This document shows positions 21,302-47,834 of a DNA stretch of 64,000 bases, piece by piece. The notes under the pieces were generated by a model. It was given only the letters and a program-made list of their open reading frames with translations. It was not told the DNA's origin and searched no databases. The stretch covers positions 1 to 64,000 of the forward strand of contig CAWFAD010000005.1 of the NCBI GenBank assembly GCA_963813815.1. Direction: 5' to 3'. The translations under genes and the position numbers were made by a program. Each line of letters begins with the position of its first letter. Position 1 is the first letter of the stretch. This DNA comes from an uncultured bacterium. Lineage in GTDB: Bacteria; Krumholzibacteriota; Krumholzibacteriia; Krumholzibacteriales; Krumholzibacteriaceae.

Positions 21302-23395
21302 TCAGTTCGGCGCAGGAGCCGTCGCGCGGCCCGCCGAAACGAGCGTCATGCGCGGAAGCTCGACGAAGAAACTCGCGCCCGCGCCGGGAGCGCTCCGGTG
21401 GCGGATGCGCCCCCCGTGGCTCTCCGCGATCTTGCGCGAGATCGAAAGGCCCATCCCCGTTCCGTCGGGCCTCGTCGTGAAGAACGGATTGTACAGCTTG
21501 TCCGCTATCTCCTCGCTGATGCCCGATCCCGTGTCGGCGAGCTCGATCTCGACGAATGCGGGATCGGCCCCCTCCCGGAGCGTCACGGTCACGCGGCCTC
21601 CCGGCGCGCACGCCTGGATGCCGTTGAGGGCGATGTTGAGTATCACCTGCTTGATCTGATCGCCGTCGAGAATGCAGCGATCGTCGGCGAGCGAGCTCTC
21701 GAACCGCAGATCGATCTCTCCCTCCTGCGCCCGATCCTCGACGAGGCGGAGCGCCTCCCGTACCACCTCGCCGAGCGCGAGCTCGACGGGGCACGGAGCG
21801 ACCGGGCGGGCGAAGGTGAGAAAGCTCTTGATGATGCCGTCGAGTCTCGCGATCTCGCCGAGAATGACGTCGAGATACGGGAGGCGATCGCCGTCCCCCG
21901 CGAGCTTCTCCCGCAGCACCTGCGCCGTCGTCGCGATGCCGGTGAGGGGGTTGCGGATCTCGTGCGCGATCCCCGCGGAAAGCTCCCCGAGCGAGCGCAG
22001 CCGGTCGGCCCGGCGGAGCTCCTCCTCCATCTCCTTCTGCGCCGTGAGATCCTCGAACACGACGATCACGGTCCGTCCGTGGTGCTCGTCGCGTGTGACG
22101 CGCGCCGTGTTGAGCCGCACCGGGATCGAGCGTCCGACCGGCCGCGCGAGAAGGCATTCGAAGGTGCAGCTCTCCTCGCTCCGCGCCAGCAGATGTTCGA
22201 AGATGCCCCCGTGACCGAATGGATTGGCGAAGAGATCGTCGAGCGGCCGGCCGAGCGGCGCGCCGCCGGCCAGCTCCCTCGCGCGCTCGTTGAGAAACTC
22301 GATCCTGCCGGAGCCGTCCGTCGTGAGGACGCCGCCGTTCATGTTCTCGAGCACCGTCTCGTTGAAGTCCTTGAGCTGCCGCAGGCGGCTGATGTTGACC
22401 GCGTTCGCGACCTCCTCCGCCAGAATCGTCTGAATCGTATTGAAAAAGTAATAGTCGTCCAAGTAGGCCTTCCGCGAACGGTAGGCCTTGCGCACGATCA
22501 GGAATCCGAGCCAGCGATTCTTGTAGAGAAGGGGCACGGCCGTATGGGACCAGGGGGCCGTCATGGAAAGGCACGTGCGAGCGGCGTCCGGCCCGACGGC
22601 GTCGAGATTGATGATCTCCGTGGGAAGAAGGTCGCACCGTTGCGCGGCCGCGAGACGCTCGACCGCTCCGTCCACGAACGCCGGCTCGAGCTGATACGCC
22701 GTCCGGACCTTGAGCACTTGCGCGTTGTTGCTGAACAAGAGGAGCGCCGAGCCGTCGGCGTCGAGATACCGGCAGAGCGCCATGAGAAAACGGTCGAGGG
22801 CGTCGCTCCAGTTTTCGTTCGTGCTGATTTCGCGGCCCATCTGATACAGCACCCGCAACCGCGTCACGTGGCGTTTCAGCAGCTCGTTCGCCTGTCGGAG
22901 CTCCTCGTTGATCCTCGCGAGCTCGCGGGCGAGCGCCTCCTTTCCCTCCTCGAGCCTGCGATTCTGCGTCTCGAGACGCACGAGGATTTCCTCGCTCTCG
23001 CTCCGCAGGCGGGCCTGGGCCACCGCCGACTCCACGGCCTCTCCGATCTTCGCGAGATCGAACGGCTTGAGGATATAGTCGAAGGCGTTCAGCCGCAGCG
23101 CCGCGATCGTGCTCTCGACCGACGCGAAGGCGGTCATGATGATGCAGGCCATCGAGGGATTCGTTTCCGAGAGCGGCGCGAGAAGATCGATGCCCGTCCG
23201 GTCGGGCAGCTTAAGATCCACGAGGGCGACGTCGAAGCGCTCATTCGCGGCGAGCGCCAGGGCCTCGGTCGCGGTGCCGGCGCCCGCGACACGGTATCCC
23301 CGGCCCGCGAGAAACTGAGAGACGAGCTCGAGGATCCCCGGCTCGTCGTCGACGACCAGTACCGAAGCGGACGCATGCTCCGACCGGTGAGCCAT
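21302..23395 (-). CDS. Hybrid sensor histidine kinase (REC-coiled coil-GAF-like-PAS-HisKA-HATPase)
   Basis: N-terminal REC (VVDDE, VDLKLP); AHEIRNPL H-box; NIALNGIQA, DTGSGI and FFTTR..GTGMGL boxes; no TM segment seen. Confidence 0.93.
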   Translation of the reverse strand: MAHRSEHASASVLVVDDEPGILELVSQFLAGRGYRVAGAGTATEALALAANERFDVALVDLKLPDRTGIDLLAPLSETNPSMACIIMTAFASVESTIAALRLNAFDYILKPFDLAKIGEAVESAVAQARLRSESEEILVRLETQNRRLEEGKEALARELARINEELRQANELLKRHVTRLRVLYQMGREISTNENWSDALDRFLMALCRYLDADGSALLLFSNNAQVLKVRTAYQLEPAFVDGAVERLAAAQRCDLLPTEIINLDAVGPDAARTCLSMTAPWSHTAVPLLYKNRWLGFLIVRKAYRSRKAYLDDYYFFNTIQTILAEEVANAVNISRLRQLKDFNETVLENMNGGVLTTDGSGRIEFLNERARELAGGAPLGRPLDDLFANPFGHGGIFEHLLARSEESCTFECLLARPVGRSIPVRLNTARVTRDEHHGRTVIVVFEDLTAQKEMEEELRRADRLRSLGELSAGIAHEIRNPLTGIATTAQVLREKLAGDGDRLPYLDVILGEIARLDGIIKSFLTFARPVAPCPVELALGEVVREALRLVEDRAQEGEIDLRFESSLADDRCILDGDQIKQVILNIALNGIQACAPGGRVTVTLREGADPAFVEIELADTGSGISEEIADKLYNPFFTTRPDGTGMGLSISRKIAESHGGRIRHRSAPGAGASFFVELPRMTLVSAGRATAPAPN

Positions 23396-38533: not shown

Positions 38534-39637
38534 TCACCGATCCGTCCGGCGGTAGGCGAACCGCGCCCGGCAGGTGCCCTCGCTCGAAACCATGCACGGC
38601 CCGAAGGGATCCTTCGGCGTGCAGGAGCGGCCGAAGAGGCCGCATTCCTCGGGCTCGATCTCTCCGAGCATGACGCGATGGCATTGGCAGCCCGGACGGA
38701 CGTCGACCGCCTCGCCCTCCGTCGAAAGGCCGAGAGAGCGGACGGCGTCGAGATGCCCGTACTCCTCCCGCAGCGCGAGACCGGACGCCGGAATGACGCC
38801 GATGCCCCGCCACGTCGCGTCCGCAGGGGCGAAACAGCGGTCGATCGTCCCGCGCGCCCTCGGGTTCCCCTCGTCGCGAACCGCCCGCCGGTACTCGTTC
38901 AACACCTCCGGCCTCCCGCCTTCGGCTATCCGCGCGAGGAGCGCGTGCACCCCCCGCAGGATATCCACGGGCTCGAAACCGGCGATGACCGACGGAACGC
39001 CGAACTCCTCATCGAGAAAGCGGTAGCCGCTGCGTCCTATGATGACGCTCACGTGGCCCGGAAGGACGAACCCGTCGATCCTCCCCGGCCCGCGCGCGAG
39101 AAGGAAGCGCAGCGCCGGAGGAATCACGCGAAGGGACGGAATGATGAAGAAATTCCGAGGAGGATCCGCCGCCAGCGCCGCGGCGATCGGCGCCGCGGTC
39201 GTCTCGAAGCCGACGGCCATGAGCACGACGGACGCGCCGGGACGCTCGCGCGCAATCGCGATCGCGTCGGACGGCGAATAAACGACCCGGACGTCGGCTC
39301 CCTCGGCGCGCGCCCGCTCGAGGGAGCCCTCCGTCGCCGGAACGCGCATCATGTCGCCGAAGGTCGCGAGAACGGTGTTCTCGCGGCGCGCCGCAGCCAT
39401 CGCGCGATCGACGTCGCGCGCCGGACACACGCAGACGGGGCAACCCGGTCCCGCGATGAGGCGCACGCCGCCGGGCAGGAGCGAGCGGATGCCGGCGCGC
39501 GCGATGGCGTGCTCGTGCGTGCCGCACACGTGCATGAGGGTGATCGCGCGGTCGACACGGAGCGCCCCTATGGCGCGGGCGATCGCGGCCACCGCCTCCG
39601 GGGAGCTCCATCCGTCGATCGCGCGCGGATCGATCAC
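38534..39637 (-). CDS. hypD: Hydrogenase maturation protein HypD
   Basis: MHVCGTHE, GPGCPVC, GFETT, PGHVS and GPCMVSSEGTC. Confidence 0.97.
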   Translation of the reverse strand: MIDPRAIDGWSSPEAVAAIARAIGALRVDRAITLMHVCGTHEHAIARAGIRSLLPGGVRLIAGPGCPVCVCPARDVDRAMAAARRENTVLATFGDMMRVPATEGSLERARAEGADVRVVYSPSDAIAIARERPGASVVLMAVGFETTAAPIAAALAADPPRNFFIIPSLRVIPPALRFLLARGPGRIDGFVLPGHVSVIIGRSGYRFLDEEFGVPSVIAGFEPVDILRGVHALLARIAEGGRPEVLNEYRRAVRDEGNPRARGTIDRCFAPADATWRGIGVIPASGLALREEYGHLDAVRSLGLSTEGEAVDVRPGCQCHRVMLGEIEPEECGLFGRSCTPKDPFGPCMVSSEGTCRARFAYRRTDR

Positions 39638-39870
39638 GCCGGGCCTTCCCCCCTCCCGGCCTCGTAGACCCGCCGGATGAGATCGAGCGTCTCGAGCGCC
39701 TCGCGCTCGTCGATGCGCTCGATGGCGTAGCCGGCGTGGATGAGGACGTAATCGCCGATCGCCACGTTATCGATCAAATCGAGGCGGATGCGTTTCCGCA
39801 CCGAGCTGCTCGCCGCGACGGCGTCGTTGCCGTCGCGCTCGACGATCAGCATGGGAATTCCGAGACACAT
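39634..39870 (-). CDS. hypC: Hydrogenase assembly chaperone HypC
   Basis: MCLGIP N-terminus and GDYVLIHAGYAI. Confidence 0.96.
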   Translation of the reverse strand: MCLGIPMLIVERDGNDAVAASSSVRKRIRLDLIDNVAIGDYVLIHAGYAIERIDEREALETLDLIRRVYEAGRGEGPA

Positions 39871-40532
39871 CAGCGTCCCCCCGCCGAGGCGGCGAATCGC
39901 TCGACCCAGGCCTCGAATCGATCGAGCCCCTCTCCGGTCACGCACGAAAGCTCGACGATGTCGAGACGCGGCTGTATTTCGAGCGCCTCGCGCCGCGCCT
40001 TCGCGACGTCGAACGAAACGTGGGGCAGCAGGTCGATCTTGTTCAGCACGAGAAGCTGCGCCTCGTGAAACATGAGGGGATACTTCTTCGGTTTGTCGTC
40101 CCCCTCCGAAACGCTCAGCAGCATCACGCGGGCGTCCTCCCCGAGATCGAACTCCGCCGGACAGACGAGGTTCCCCACGTTCTCGATGAGCAAAAGATCG
40201 ATCGCGTCGAGATCGAATCGGTGGAGCGCCGAGTGCACCATCGCCGCGTCGAGATGGCACACGCCGCCCGTCTGTATCTGGTACACCGGAACGCCGAGGG
40301 CCGCGACGCGCTCGGCGTCGGCGGTTCCTTGAATGTCCCCCTCGATGACGCCCACGGCCCGATGCTTCGCGAGCAGGGGGATGGCGCGGACGAGGAGCGA
40401 CGTTTTGCCGGCCCCCGGAGCGCTCATGAGATTGAGCGTCGCGACGCCGTGGGAACGCAGATGCTCTCGGTTCTCCGCCGCGATCACCCGGTTCCGGTCC
40501 CGCAGATCCTCTCCGATCCGTATTTCGTGCAT
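39870..40532 (-). CDS. hypB: Hydrogenase nickel incorporation GTPase HypB
   Basis: SAPGAGKT, EGD, GVCHLDA, ENVGNLVCPA, EGDDKPKKYP and NKIDL. Confidence 0.97.
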   Translation of the reverse strand: MHEIRIGEDLRDRNRVIAAENREHLRSHGVATLNLMSAPGAGKTSLLVRAIPLLAKHRAVGVIEGDIQGTADAERVAALGVPVYQIQTGGVCHLDAAMVHSALHRFDLDAIDLLLIENVGNLVCPAEFDLGEDARVMLLSVSEGDDKPKKYPLMFHEAQLLVLNKIDLLPHVSFDVAKARREALEIQPRLDIVELSCVTGEGLDRFEAWVERFAASAGGR

Positions 40533-40543
40533 CGCCCCTTCCT

Positions 40544-40915
40544 CTATTCCTTCGCGCTCTCGTCCCCCGGCTCGTCGTCCGTCAGGATGTAGTCGACTTC
40601 CATTTCCCGTCCGCCGAGAATATCGATCTCGGTCGAGCCGCACCTCTCGCAGGCGAAAACGAAATTTGCCGGCCGCGCCTCCGCCGCGCACCCCCGGCAC
40701 CGGACGCGGAGCGGAACGCTCTCGCATTCGAGACGACCGCCCTGGGCGACGGTGCCCGGCGCGAGCGCCTCGAAGGCGAAGCTCAGCGCGTCGATATTGA
40801 CCCCGGCCATCTCGCCGATGCGCAGATGCACGACGCGGACGCGCTCGCCGCCCGCCTCGCGAGCCGCGCGCCCGACGATGGCGAGCAGATTTCCCATGAG
40901 AGCGGTTTCATGCAT
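40544..40915 (-). CDS. hypA: Hydrogenase nickel metallochaperone HypA
   Basis: MHE N-terminus, two CxxC pairs and GGREM. Confidence 0.95.
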   Translation of the reverse strand: MHETALMGNLLAIVGRAAREAGGERVRVVHLRIGEMAGVNIDALSFAFEALAPGTVAQGGRLECESVPLRVRCRGCAAEARPANFVFACERCGSTEIDILGGREMEVDYILTDDEPGDESAKE

Positions 40916-41414
40916 TCGGCCGCTTCCGTTCGCCGAGCCCGCGCGATACGCGCGTCGAGGCACGCCCCAAAACCTCCCCCGCGATCTCCTCGACGAGTCC
41001 CGGCAGCGCCCCGGCGACGGCCTCCGTGCACTCTTCGCCGAGCGTCAGCGCGTCGGCCACCTGCACGGCGTACACCTTCACCTCGGCCGGCATCGCCAGT
41101 CCGAGCCGGCGCCCGAGCGCGAGCGCGGTCACGAGATCGATGTCGTGGAGGGAGGCGAGCCTCGCGGTGATGCGGAGATCGTCGGGCTCGAGGCGGAAGA
41201 CGGTTCCCGGATCCTCTCCCTCGAGCTGGATCGAGTCGATGATAAAAGCGCGGTCGTACCCGCGCAGCAGCTCGACGAGATCGAGCCCCGCGCTCGCCGA
41301 TTCGCGGCAATCGGCGGCGCCGTCGACCCGGCCGGCGAGCGCCCGGACGGCGTACACGCCGACGCCGTCGTCCCGGAGAATGGTGTTGCCGAGACCGAGA
41401 ATGAGCGTTTTCAC
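40908..41414 (-). CDS. Hydrogenase maturation protease
   Basis: LGLGNTILRDDGVG, IIDS and SLHD motifs. Confidence 0.93.
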   Translation of the reverse strand: MKTLILGLGNTILRDDGVGVYAVRALAGRVDGAADCRESASAGLDLVELLRGYDRAFIIDSIQLEGEDPGTVFRLEPDDLRITARLASLHDIDLVTALALGRRLGLAMPAEVKVYAVQVADALTLGEECTEAVAGALPGLVEEIAGEVLGRASTRVSRGLGERKRPNA

Positions 41415-41442: not shown

Positions 41443-42906
41443 TCACGACCGAGAGATCGTGCGGAGCGTCTCGCCGGCGCTGTTTTTCAATTCGACAACG
41501 AGAGGCATCTGACCGGGGAGGCTGTGCGTCGCGCAGCTGAAACAGGGATCGAAGATGCGGAACGCCATCTCGACCGTGTTGAGAAGCCCTTCGGTGACCG
41601 CGCCGCCGGCGCCGATGAACTTCTGGGCGGCCTTCTTGACCGCCATCGAGATCGGCGCGTTGTTGTTCGTCGTGCCGACGATGAGGTTCGCCTTCGTGAC
41701 GATGCCCCGTTCGTCGGTGACGAAGTGGTGCGTGAGCGTCCCGCGCGGCGCTTCGACGATGCCCACTCCCTCGGACGGCGTCGCCGACGGGATGACGCGG
41801 ACGTTCGGATCCAGTATCTCCGGATCGGCGACGAGCTCGGCGAGACGTTCCGCCGCGTAGACAAGCTCGATGAGCCGCGCCCAGTGGTGGGCCATGAGCT
41901 TGTGCACGGGCTTGCCGCCGAAGGTCGCGTACATCCTCTCGTACGCCTCCTGCGCCTTCGGGGTCGCCATGCCGACCGAGGCGTTCAGCCGCGCGAGCGG
42001 CGCCGCCTGATAGATCGAGGTGCCCTTCCCTTCCTTGAAGCCCTGCCAACCGAGCTTCTTGAGGTACGGGAACTTGAGATACGAGTACGGCTCGACGTGC
42101 TCGGCGACGTGCTCGAGGTACTCCGATTCGCGGTACCGGTCGATCTCCGCGCCCTCCGGATCGACGACGCGGACCGTCCCGTCGTAGAGCGTGACGCGGT
42201 TGCGGTCGTCGACGAGCCCCATGTAGTTCGTTACGAGCTCGAAGCCGTCGCCGAGGATGAGATCGAGGTAGGCCTTGTTCTTAAGCACGATGTCGTCGAA
42301 AAGCTTGAGACCAAGCTCGCCGAAGGAAACCAGCCCCGGAACGAAACCCTTGATCGTTTCGAGATCCGCCGGCGCGAGCGCCCGCGAGACCCCGCCCGGA
42401 AGGTTCCAGACCGGATGCGTCGCCCGCCCGCCGACCATCTGCTGGATGAGCTGCGTGATCTCGCGCTGGCGGATCACCTCTCGCCCGAGATCGAGGCCCA
42501 CCTTGCCGATGAGGCCGAGGATGTTGCGCTCGGCCGGGGGAGCGCCCGGCCCGACGACGAAATCGGGCGCCGCGAGCGCGTAGAAATGCGCCGTGTGGCT
42601 GTGCATGAAGTGCGCCATGTAGTACAGCTCGCGCAGCTTCGCGGCCACCGCCGGAATCTTCACCTTGTATACTGCATCTACGGCCTTACCCGAGGCCATG
42701 TGGTGTGCGGCCGGTCAAACCCCGCAGATGCGCGTGACGACCCTCGGTATCTCCTCGACGGGCAGACCTTCGACGAACTTTTCGAATCCCCTCAGCTCGG
42801 GGATCTGGAGGTACGCGTTCTCAACCGCGCCCTCGTCGTTCACGAAGATCATGATCTTCCCGTGCCCTTCGAGGCGAGTGATCGGGTCGATCGCGATGCG
42901 CTTCAT
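41443..42906 (-). CDS. mvhA: [NiFe]-hydrogenase large subunit MvhA (group 3c type), 487 aa, with in-frame UGA at codon 64 (putative selenocysteine)
   Basis: DPITRLEGH, ELRGFE, RICGV-TGA-PAAHH all in one frame; EAPRGTLTHH; C-terminal DPCFSCATH plus a cleavable tail. Confidence 0.92.
42680..42699 (-). promoter_or_regulatory. Putative bacterial SECIS element
   Basis: Stem ATGGCCT/AGGCCGT with loop CGGGTA; the loop starts 22 nt downstream of the UGA. Confidence 0.65.
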
Positions 42907-43856
42907 ATCCTCTTCCTCCTCGGTATCGATGACGCGAGGCTGAACCGGTGGAGCGTCGTGAGCGGCGCCACCACCGTGTCGAGCGTCGCATTGATCTCGT
43001 TTTCCTCCTTGCCGTCGATGACGGACGCGAGCGCGCTCAGCATCTTGAGCCCCTGATCCGTCACGCCGTCGAGCGGCCCGTAGCAGCCCCGGCAGGGCAC
43101 CCCCGACTTGATGCAGCGCGAGCCGCACCCCGAACGCGTCGCCGGACCGAGGCAGAGGTACCCCTGCTCGAGAAAGCACGTTTCGGGATCGGGGAGCTTC
43201 TCGTGCGTGCGGTAGATCCGCGTGATCTTTTTTTCGCTCTTTATGCGCGCGCATTCGTCGCAGAGGGCGCGTTCGCCGGCGCCGATCACGCTCCCCTTCC
43301 GAGGCAGCATGTCGTCTGCGATGAGCCCGATCGCCGAATAGATCTGGAGGGAGGCGGGCGGACAGCCGGGGATCGTGTAATCGACCTCGACCACCTGCGA
43401 GAGCGTCTTGACGGTATTGTAGAAGCGCGGCAGCTCGAGCTCGAGCCCGTCCTGCACGGTCCGTTCCTCCGGCAACACTCCGCCCGGGTTGTCGGTCGAT
43501 TCCGATTCGATATAAACGCGGCGCAACGTCTCGTCGCGCGTGAACATGTTCGAGAGCCCCGGGATGCCCCCGACGTGGGCGCAGGCGCCGAGAGCGATCA
43601 TCATTTTCCCCTTCCGGCGGAGGAGCTTCGCGATCTCCTCGTTTTCCGAATTGCGGATGGCGCCGCTGAAGAACACCGCGTCGAGAAAACCGTCGGGCAT
43701 GGCGCGCACGTCGTCGTACTTGAAATCCATCGCGATCGGCCAGAAGAGGATGTCGGCCGCCCCCGCGATCTCGAGAATCTTTTCGTGCGTGTCGAGAATC
43801 GCGACGTCGCATCCCCCGCACGCCGCTCCCCAATATATGCCGATCTTGAGCTTCAT
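42903..43856 (-). CDS. mvhG: [NiFe]-hydrogenase small subunit MvhG
   Basis: ACGGC, GACA..GGIPGL, IPGCPP, LCDEC, CFLEQGYLCLGPATRSGC and PCRGCYGP. Confidence 0.95.
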   Translation of the reverse strand: MKLKIGIYWGAACGGCDVAILDTHEKILEIAGAADILFWPIAMDFKYDDVRAMPDGFLDAVFFSGAIRNSENEEIAKLLRRKGKMMIALGACAHVGGIPGLSNMFTRDETLRRVYIESESTDNPGGVLPEERTVQDGLELELPRFYNTVKTLSQVVEVDYTIPGCPPASLQIYSAIGLIADDMLPRKGSVIGAGERALCDECARIKSEKKITRIYRTHEKLPDPETCFLEQGYLCLGPATRSGCGSRCIKSGVPCRGCYGPLDGVTDQGLKMLSALASVIDGKEENEINATLDTVVAPLTTLHRFSLASSIPRRKRI

Positions 43857-43860
43857 CTCG

Positions 43861-44337
43861 TCATACTCCGGTTTCTTGCGCCGCCGCGCCTTCGCCGTGC
43901 AGGACGTCCCGCTTCATGCTTTCGAGCACCGACTCCTTGAGAGCGAGCGGGCCGAGGGCGCGGATCTGCTCGGTGAACTCGTCGACGACGCGTCCGAAGC
44001 GATCCCCCTCCGATGCGGAGATCCACTCGAGACGCACCCTCTCGGGCTCGATGCCGTACTCGGGAAGGACGCGTCTGAGGAGGAGATACCGCCGCAGCGC
44101 CTTGTAATTTCCCTCCAGATAATGGCAATCCCCCGGGTGGCATCCGCCGATGAGCACCCCGTCGGCTCCCTCCGCGAGCGCCGTCAGGATGAACACGGGA
44201 TCCACGCGACCGCTGCACATGACGCGTATCGACCGGACGTTCGGGCTGTACTTCACGCGCGCGGTCCCTGCCAGATCGGCGCCCGTATAGGTGCACCAGT
44301 TGCAGAGGAACCCCACGATTCTCGGTTCAAACGCCAT
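43861..44337 (-). CDS. mvhD: MvhD [2Fe-2S] subunit
   Basis: FLCNWCTYTGADLAG, VMCSGRVD, GCHPGDCHY and WISASE. Confidence 0.97.
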   Translation of the reverse strand: MAFEPRIVGFLCNWCTYTGADLAGTARVKYSPNVRSIRVMCSGRVDPVFILTALAEGADGVLIGGCHPGDCHYLEGNYKALRRYLLLRRVLPEYGIEPERVRLEWISASEGDRFGRVVDEFTEQIRALGPLALKESVLESMKRDVLHGEGAAAQETGV

Positions 44338-46382: not shown

Positions 46383-47258
46383 TCATGCTCCCTGGAATAT
46401 TTCCTTGATCGGTTTCGTGAGCTTCACCGCGAGACGGTTGAGTCCGAGCTTCTCGGGCGGCAAGCCCAGCGCCACGCCGATGAGCTGGGTGAAGTAGAGA
46501 ATCGGAAGATTGAATTTCGTCTTGAACAGGGCGTTCACCTTTCCCTGGTACACGTCGAGATTCATCTGACAGAGCGGGCACGTCGTGACGAGGCAGTGCG
46601 CCCCCCTGCGCTCGGCGTCGAGGAGCAGGTTCCTGCAGAGCCGCATGGCGAGCTCCTCCTGCGTCCCCATGAGGGATGCGCCGCAGCAGGCGGTTTTCAT
46701 CCGGTAATCGACGTTTTCCGCCCCGAGCTTCTCGATGAGCTTGTTCATCTTGACCGGATCGTCCGGATCGTCGAAATCAGTCTCGGGACGGACGATCTGG
46801 CATCCGTAGTACGGCGCCACCTTGAGCCCCGTGAGCTTCTTCACGACGAGCGAGCCGATCGTGTCGCAACCGACGTCGCTGCACACCACGTCGAGCAGGT
46901 GGCGGACCCGCACGTTGCCGCTGTAGCTGAGGCCTCCCGCCTCGAGCGCCTGGCCGATCTTCTTGCGCAGATCCGGATATTCGGCGAAATACCGGTTCGT
47001 CTTGTTGAGAACGGTGTAGCAGGCGCTGCACGGCGTCACCACGTCGCGGTGATGCTGCTCGGCGAGCGCGAGGTTGCGCGCCGAGATCGCGAAGCTCATG
47101 AGCTCCTTCACCGACATGTAGGCGGTCGCGCCGCAGCAGTTCCAATCCTCGAGCTCCTCGAGCTCGAGCCCGAGCGCCGGCGCGATCGCGTCGATCGAGT
47201 CCCGATAGATGTTGGCGGTCGCGCGGACGGAGCAGCCGGGATAGTACGTGTATTTCAT
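46383..47258 (-). CDS. hdrB: Heterodisulfide reductase subunit B
   Basis: Two CCG domains (YYPGC..WNCCG..PCSAC and YYGC..CCG..CPLCQ). Confidence 0.95.
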   Translation of the reverse strand: MKYTYYPGCSVRATANIYRDSIDAIAPALGLELEELEDWNCCGATAYMSVKELMSFAISARNLALAEQHHRDVVTPCSACYTVLNKTNRYFAEYPDLRKKIGQALEAGGLSYSGNVRVRHLLDVVCSDVGCDTIGSLVVKKLTGLKVAPYYGCQIVRPETDFDDPDDPVKMNKLIEKLGAENVDYRMKTACCGASLMGTQEELAMRLCRNLLLDAERRGAHCLVTTCPLCQMNLDVYQGKVNALFKTKFNLPILYFTQLIGVALGLPPEKLGLNRLAVKLTKPIKEIFQGA

Positions 47259-47834
47259 CTAGATCTCCCCGAGCTCGTCGACCCTCTTGAGTATCTTTCG
47301 CAACTGCTGAATGTTCTTGATGCGATGCGGCAGGAGCGGGAGACGCCCGTTCGAGAAGAGTCGCCAGCCCTGCGGAACGAACTTGAACGCATGATGCGGT
47401 TCGGCTTCGAGAATATACCGCGCCATGAGCTCCGTCTCGTGGTTGCGGCCGTACTTGTTGACCATGCGCGCGAAGTTACGCGAAAGCACGACCGCTTTCT
47501 TCCCCTTGGTCTTGCCTTCGGCGACGGCCAGGCGCTTGAGGGCGTACATGACGTCGGTGATCTTTATGTTCTTCGGACACCGCACCGAGCAGGTGTAGCA
47601 GGACGAGCAGTACCATATCGTGTTCGAACGGAGGACCTCGTCGCGGAAGCCCGCCCGGATGAGGGAAAAGATCTTGCGCGGGCCGTGGTCCATGACGTAG
47701 CTCAGCGGGCAGGAGCTGCTGCACGTTCCGCACTGGATGCATTTCTTGATTTCGTGCCCTCCGGGGAGGGAGTAGATCTCGGTCAGAAAATCATGATCGA
47801 GCTTGTATTCGGCCACGATGTCCCTGTCGAGCAT
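47259..47834 (-). CDS. hdrC: Heterodisulfide reductase subunit C
   Basis: CIQCGTCSSSCP and WYCSSCYTCSVRCP; AGGAG SD. Confidence 0.95.
   Translation of the reverse strand: MLDRDIVAEYKLDHDFLTEIYSLPGGHEIKKCIQCGTCSSSCPLSYVMDHGPRKIFSLIRAGFRDEVLRSNTIWYCSSCYTCSVRCPKNIKITDVMYALKRLAVAEGKTKGKKAVVLSRNFARMVNKYGRNHETELMARYILEAEPHHAFKFVPQGWRLFSNGRLPLLPHRIKNIQQLRKILKRVDELGEI

Follow-up and report, generated by a model that had tools for sequence, protein, structure and literature searches.

A predicted selenocysteine at the nickel-iron bridging position of an Hdr-linked, Mvh-type hydrogenase in Krumholzibacteriota

In a stretch of 64,000 nucleotides from an uncultured member of the Krumholzibacteriota (contig CAWFAD010000005.1 of GenBank assembly GCA_963813815.1, positions 1 to 64,000; hereafter the window), the gene mvhA, encoding a [NiFe]-hydrogenase large subunit, carries an in-frame TGA as its codon 64. 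We read this codon, with a probability of roughly 85%, as selenocysteine (Sec) at the Ni-Fe bridging ligand of an Mvh-type hydrogenase. The evidence consists of the codon itself, its conservation, the alternation of Sec and Cys states among relatives, the Sec machinery of the genome, a conserved hairpin downstream and the alignment of residue 64 to a bridging cysteine. The original prediction, made from the letters of the window, had proposed this recoding, most likely as Sec, in an Hdr-coupled hydrogenase, and the comparative evidence supports it well. It had also described a gene split in the ORF (open reading frame) track without a frameshift, and a C-terminal DPCFSC motif with cysteine at both positions, and the read-through translation agrees on both counts. 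The plus strand reads TCA at 42715-42717, giving TGA on the minus strand. Under translation table 11, mvhA falls into two ORFs (42715..42906 and 41443..42699), and translation of 42906..41443 (minus strand) with the TGA read through yields a single frame of 487 codons. Its N-terminal region reads R59-I-C61-G-V-TGA64-P-A-A-H-H-M-A-S-G-K and its C-terminal region D453-P-C455-F-S-C458-A-T-H461, followed further on by the terminal TGA. Both metal-binding motifs, RxCGxC and DPCxxCxxH, are therefore present, with one ligand position occupied by the UGA codon.

The read-through protein matches the hydrogenase large-subunit family PF00374 with an E-value of 6.3e-36 and 124.8 bits, against a curated cut-off of 25.8. 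Among solved structures, the top match is 7t2r_D (named 'NiFe hydrogenase large subunit'; 9.6e-113), and 5odc_F, an MvhA, matches at 3.8e-109. In both alignments, residue 64 falls on the second cysteine of RICGIC. Residues 2-117 also align to residues 17-132 of 3uqy_L, the large subunit of Escherichia coli Hyd-1, which places residue 64 at Hyd-1 C79.

Codon 64 was followed through 41 related genomes by a read-through search, which returned 30 mvhA loci. Tabulating TGA against TGY in homologues had been suggested along with the original prediction, and the alternation is present: the aligned codon is TGA at 19 of the 30 loci, TGC or TGT at nine, and unreadable at two (L029 and L034, each either incomplete at the N-terminus or lacking the motif). 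Of 15 other genomes in the genus, 14 have TGA at this position, and TGA also stands there in five further genera. A strict form of the pattern matched 21 of 208 Krumholzibacteriota genomes, with no match in the reversed control, and three of 401 sampled Acidobacteriota genomes. An orthologue of 63% identity in an Acidobacteriota metagenome-assembled genome (MAG; L046) likewise has TGA, and TGT stands at the codon in a Myxococcales MAG. Between species, the terminal stop of mvhA switches among TGA, TAG and TAA, so the identity of a stop codon is otherwise unconstrained in this gene, whereas codon 64 is only ever TGA or TGY. A scan of metagenomes for the CxxU motif, in which U stands for the UGA-encoded residue, returned at least 119 stretches, of which at least 56 are MvhA-like, with 36-91% identity to the window protein. 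The other 63 of the 119 show no similarity to MvhA and are either chance matches or too short to tell; one locus that had passed the motif filter by chance (L098) was removed before alignment. A large set of the MvhA-like loci (such as L053, L060 and L066, about 60-65% identical) has Cys at codon 73 (M-A-S-C-K-A) and, in the hairpin described below, the loop CGUGYA in place of CGGGUA.

A short hairpin lies immediately 3' of the codon and is a candidate selenocysteine insertion sequence (SECIS). Counted from the U of UGA, its stem begins 20 nt downstream; 22 nt lie between UGA and loop, and the stem comprises 6 bp (7 bp in the centroid fold). Bacterial SECIS elements, as sought by bSECISearch, are stem-loops shortly 3' of the UGA with a G in the apical loop, and the hairpin has both the position and the apical G. 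We scanned synonymous change along the gene in 14-codon segments, ranked so that a low rank denotes the least change. Among 18 distinct full-length Sec-type mvhA genes, codons 65-78 show a synonymous codon difference of 0.136 versus 0.395 gene-wide (rank 2 of 473), the eight lowest segments all begin at codons 63-71, and codons 71-75 each use one codon in all 18 genes. The nine Cys-type orthologues behave in the opposite manner, scoring 0.693 over the same codons versus 0.564 gene-wide (rank 471 of 476). One of the Cys-type genes (L022 in genome G020, from the same family) has TGC at codon 64, yet the hairpin that follows is unchanged letter for letter (GGCCTCGGGTAAGGCC), as if Sec had recently given way to Cys and left a fossil SECIS behind. 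In metagenomes, the pattern GGCCUCGKGYAAGGCY stands at the same offset in 51 of the 56 MvhA-like stretches, among the matches listed, and the remaining five of those listed have other hairpins at nearly the same place. Divergent CxxU homologues carry hairpins of different sequence at almost the same offset, CUUCGC-AGGC-GCGAAG in L078 and L080 and GGCGUC-CGUGAA-GGCGCU in L059. Over 68 distinct sequences, 95.1% of the stem cells are paired, versus 1-49% when the partner strand is slid. The hairpin is a candidate RNA element backed by its conservation, its position and its link to the TGA, not by covariation.

The genome itself (16 contigs, 2.53 Mb, 90.8% complete) holds the genes needed to read such a signal, and a search for selA, selB, selD and tRNA-Sec found all four. 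SelA is matched at 3.6e-124, and a SelB winged-helix domain at 7.2e-18. SelD is matched at 5.2e-110 (contig 10, 174414-175340, plus strand; L003), and its gene carries an in-frame TGA of its own (M-A-S-C-A-G-TGA-A-A-K-L). The enzyme is thus a Sec-type selenophosphate synthetase, and Sec is therefore used in at least one other gene of this organism. ARAGORN reports a tRNA-Sec of 98 nt with a UCA anticodon and discriminator base G, which scores 71.3 bits against Rfam RF01852 (gathering score 47). A second ARAGORN call, a 91-nt 'tRNA-???' with a two-base anticodon at 21683-21773 of the window (minus strand), had no Rfam match at E-values up to 1 and is probably a false call. Judged by this gene content, the organism is able to decode UGA as Sec.

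Several results weigh against a Sec reading or dilute the support for it. SelA occurs in all 41 related genomes, those with Cys-type genes included, and so cannot tell the two types apart. Of the 18 Sec-type genes in the synonymous-change scan, fourteen come from one genus and are not independent. Across the 68 sequences, no hairpin pair shows a change in both partners, and the observed score is equalled or exceeded in 67 of 500 shuffles. The 86-nt region after the motif folds no better than its shuffles (z = 0.64), and the small hairpin is its only meaningful part. A scan of window positions 30000-55000 against Rfam, at E-values up to 10, matched no SECIS-type family. Lastly, conservation of the hairpin could in part reflect a conserved peptide, A-S-G-K-A; in Cys-type genes with the related peptide A-A-G-K-A, the third codon positions vary freely. 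The hairpin region also gave a sub-threshold match to IRES_Bip (42631-42716, minus strand; 19.1 bits against a gathering score of 40, E-value 0.054), which is most likely a chance hit on a GC-rich, structured stretch.

The alternative that survives best is that UGA64 is recoded as cysteine, through the same hairpin and SelB and a tRNA(ReC)- or SelC*-type tRNA charged by cysteinyl-tRNA synthetase, which would leave an ordinary all-Cys [NiFe] enzyme. Such tRNAs are reported to read a UGA linked to a SECIS as Cys, and some genomes that encode N-terminal Sec-type hydrogenases contain them (Vargas-Rodriguez 2018, as cited in the available text of Takano 2026, PMC13582414). The nine TGY loci, which we take to be working genes, show that orthologues with Cys at position 64 exist, and an incomplete genome might hide a tRNA of this kind. 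The one tRNA with a UCA anticodon in the whole genome, however, is the Rfam-confirmed tRNA-Sec with discriminator G, and the sole long GCA candidate, an 85-nt tRNA-Cys(gca) on contig 13 (13414-13498, minus strand; L169), was rejected as a tRNA(ReC) for its mismatched acceptor stem and the lack of an Rfam tRNA match. There is also only one SelB-type match, and we see no obvious selective reason to retain a costly UGA and hairpin across more than 20 species if cysteine were the product. SECIS-directed Cys insertion, which the original prediction had kept as an alternative, thus stands in principle, but no tRNA suited to it was found in the 90.8%-complete genome, and we consider it improbable.

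Termination at TGA64 is less probable again. Under this reading, mvhA would either be a pseudogene or yield two products, an N-terminal peptide of 63 residues and a protein of 418 residues that starts at Met70; the split under table 11 and the in-frame ATG at Met70 speak for it. A break at this point would separate the N-terminal pair of Ni ligands, with loss of the bridging residue. Moreover, the TGA and both of its flanks are kept over many species and two phyla. Within codons 1-63, third-position differences exceed those at first and second positions combined (30 versus 9 against L026, for example), which indicates that the short upstream piece is translated in the mvhA frame, and codons 65-69 (PAAHH) are conserved in frame. 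The substitution pattern is that of purifying selection in one frame on both sides of TGA64. Nothing else in the operon, maturation genes included, is broken; the original prediction had held an otherwise intact 11-gene operon to argue against a pseudogene, and its rejection of one holds.

Confirmation of the TGA in sequencing data came from Logan assembled contigs of four public runs, two from DNA and two from RNA libraries, which span codon 64 and, among the matches listed, carry no other letter at 42715-42717; we take these contigs, those from RNA libraries included, as evidence of presence, not of transcription or of depth at read level. The TGA form is present in independent data sets. 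Neither an error of sequencing or assembly nor a reassignment of UGA throughout the genome (as in codes 4 or 25) has anything in its favour beyond the single codon, and both can be set aside, since independent assemblies share the TGA, and since TGA is the commonest stop of long ORFs, ending 895 of 1482 of at least 500 codons, as well as mvhA itself.

If UGA64 is indeed read as selenocysteine, SelB with Sec-tRNA(Sec) would bind the hairpin GGCCU-CGGGUA-AGGCC located 20 nt past the UGA, and Sec would be inserted in place of termination. The resulting full-length MvhA of 487 residues would hold the Ni-Fe site through Cys61 (terminal), Sec64 (bridging), Cys455 (terminal) and Cys458 (bridging), so that selenium would bridge the two metals. 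Maturation would fall to HypABCD and the HycI-type protease encoded downstream, and the mature subunit would act with MvhG, MvhD and HdrABC as an Hdr-coupled cytoplasmic hydrogenase. By analogy with methanogens, this complex may bifurcate electrons.

To trace the history of the Sec/Cys state, we built a maximum-likelihood tree from 30 full-length proteins, 20 of the Sec type and 10 of the Cys type, rooted at the midpoint only. At least three to four changes of state are needed on it. A clade of 23 rows (support 95/89) unites the Krumholzibacteriota genes with two Acidobacteriota genes and contains 19 Sec-type and four Cys-type members. Taken with the shared hairpin sequence, this clade suggests that Sec was gained once in an ancestor, passed between phyla and gave way to Cys again at least twice. 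Another Sec-type CxxU MvhA-like gene, from an Acidobacteriota sample (L166, 1516-1575, in genome G442), falls in a different clade as sister to a Cys-type gene (98/89), and its downstream sequence is different; here Sec was probably gained separately at this position. Speculatively, and with more doubt than confidence, one may picture a naturally selected, Hdr-coupled, Group 3c-like [NiFeSe] clade with a Ni-Fe selenolate bridge, founded by one ancestral gain of UGA and hairpin in Krumholzibacteriota and some Acidobacteriota and later subject to Cys reversions, in which selenium might tune catalysis, for example towards a higher H2 affinity suited to low H2 in anoxic soils and sediments.

The genes around mvhA place the enzyme in its class (Table 1). 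Eleven intact genes follow one another on the minus strand in the order hdrC-hdrB-hdrA-mvhD-mvhG-mvhA-hycI-like protease-hypA-hypB-hypC-hypD, and the gene upstream of hdrC encodes a TPR protein on the plus strand. The hyp ORFs overlap within 38534..40963, and their true starts probably lie further in. By its contiguous hdrC-hdrB-hdrA-mvhD-mvhG-mvhA genes, the hydrogenase is an Hdr-linked, Mvh-type, Group 3c-like enzyme. VhuA, VhuG, VhuD and HdrA2 are the best NCBIfam families for the respective genes, all under their equivalog cut-offs (VhuA reaches 395 bits on MvhA against a cut-off of 800), and we accordingly regard the operon as an Mvh/Hdr-type system rather than an orthologue of the methanococcal enzymes. 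The canonical [NiFeSe] class, defined by DPUxxC, is not matched either: the motif is DPCFSC, and the NCBIfam models HysA (151.7 bits against a cut-off of 780) and NiFeSe_hydrog (163 against 600) both stay below threshold.

Table 1 Features of the mvhA locus, in window coordinates; values are E-values of family matches
Feature	Position	Strand	Remarks
In-frame TGA, mvhA codon 64	42715..42717	minus	Second (Ni-Fe bridging) Cys position of RxCGxC; read as selenocysteine
Candidate SECIS hairpin	42681..42698	minus	U-GGCCU / loop CGGGUA / AGGCC-G; codons 70-76 (M-A-S-G-K-A-V)
DPCFSC C-terminal motif, codons 453-458	41533..41550	minus	Both positions Cys; no Sec at the canonical [NiFeSe] position
mvhA, [NiFe]-hydrogenase large subunit	41443..42906	minus	487 codons plus terminal TGA; predicted ligands C61, U64, C455, C458
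hdrC (4Fe-4S dicluster)	47259..47834	minus	First operon gene
hdrB (CCG domains)	46383..47258	minus	PF02754 3.4e-29
hdrA, 672 aa	44363..46381	minus	No in-frame TGA; NCBIfam HdrA2 1.2e-233, under its cut-off
mvhD	43861..44337	minus	NCBIfam VhuD 9.5e-37; C-terminal part of HdrA2 2.6e-53
mvhG, hydrogenase small subunit	42903..43856	minus	PF01058 1.9e-21; NCBIfam VhuG 1.8e-65, under its cut-off
HycI-type hydrogenase maturation endopeptidase	40908..41414	minus	PF01750 1.3e-11
hypA	40544-40963 (ORF)	minus	PF01155 9.6e-30
hypB	39870-40727 (ORF)	minus	PF02492 1.4e-22
hypC	39634-39900	minus	PF01455 1.8e-24
hypD	38534-39637	minus	PF01924 1.1e-132

To our knowledge, all characterised [NiFeSe] hydrogenases carry their selenium on a terminal nickel ligand. 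Selenium at that position is held to speed up H2 production and to ease recovery from O2 damage. A natural selenium that bridges nickel and iron, if the reading of UGA64 as Sec is true, would show what selenium does elsewhere in the active site, a question approached so far, as far as the available text of Evans et al. 2021 (PMC8020662) conveys, only by an engineered E. coli variant. Because standard gene callers cut these genes in two, surveys of soil and sediment hydrogenases will overlook them or record them as broken; the conserved hairpin offers a simple DNA signature for finding CxxU mvhA genes.

The original prediction had further put forward a candidate new type of [NiFeSe] enzyme, and this part does not hold. 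N-terminal CXXU motifs, with Sec predicted to bridge Ni and Fe, are on record for two Group 1 sequences and one Group 3 sequence (Baltazar et al. 2011, as cited in the available text of Takano et al. 2026, PMC13582414). The same text describes 47 Group 4 sequences with an N-terminal Sec, 27 of them of the CXXU type, and gives the second residue of the N-terminal motif as the bridging one (PMC13582414), and an engineered C79U enzyme has been measured (PMC8020662). The mvhA genes reported here thus form a new and well-populated group within a variant already catalogued from sequence. In the portions available of a 2026 review of the prokaryotic selenoproteome (PMC13188914), MvhA, VhuA and VhuU appear only with the UxxC motif, and the available text of papers on Desulfobacterium autotrophicum, Syntrophobacter and Asgard archaea does not state the Sec position in MvhA-type subunits. 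Our literature search found no description of an Hdr-linked CxxU hydrogenase clade or of a purified natural enzyme with bridging selenium, and the search listings on Krumholzibacteriota and hydrogenase, and on NiFeSe and Group 3c, contained no CxxU variant.

Compared with the known CxxU variants, the window gene shares the UGA at the second Cys of the N-terminal CxxC, the predicted bridging role of Sec, a SECIS-like hairpin just 3', selABCD in the genome and an otherwise unchanged gene cluster. Unlike the CXXU Group 4 membrane complexes, it is Hdr-linked and Mvh-type (Group 3c-like) and comes from Krumholzibacteriota. With the methanogen MvhAGD-HdrABC complex (5odc), it has in common the full set of hdrABC, mvhD, mvhG and mvhA, and its MvhA matches 5odc_F over residues 2-464, but it belongs to a bacterial host, and the corresponding residue of the methanogen enzyme is Cys. 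As in the canonical [NiFeSe] enzymes (Desulfomicrobium baculatum 1cc1, Desulfovibrio vulgaris HysAB, Methanococcus Vhu/Fru), one Cys ligand would be replaced by Sec through UGA; there, however, Sec is the first residue of the C-terminal UxxC and a terminal Ni ligand, whereas in the window MvhA it would lie in the N-terminal motif at a bridging position. The closest parallel in ligand position is E. coli Hyd-1, in which each ligand was replaced by Sec (Evans et al. 2021, PMC8020662). According to the available text, the C79U variant retained 13% of native H2 oxidation, the best of four single Sec variants; its Km for H2 was lower, its activation enthalpy was higher, and at 10% O2 it had almost no activity (PMC8020662). 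Hyd-1 C79U and the window enzyme would thus share selenium at the same ligand, the N-terminal bridging Cys, but the former is artificial, was made by UAG suppression and belongs to an O2-tolerant Group 1 enzyme, whereas the latter is encoded by a natural, Hdr-linked gene.

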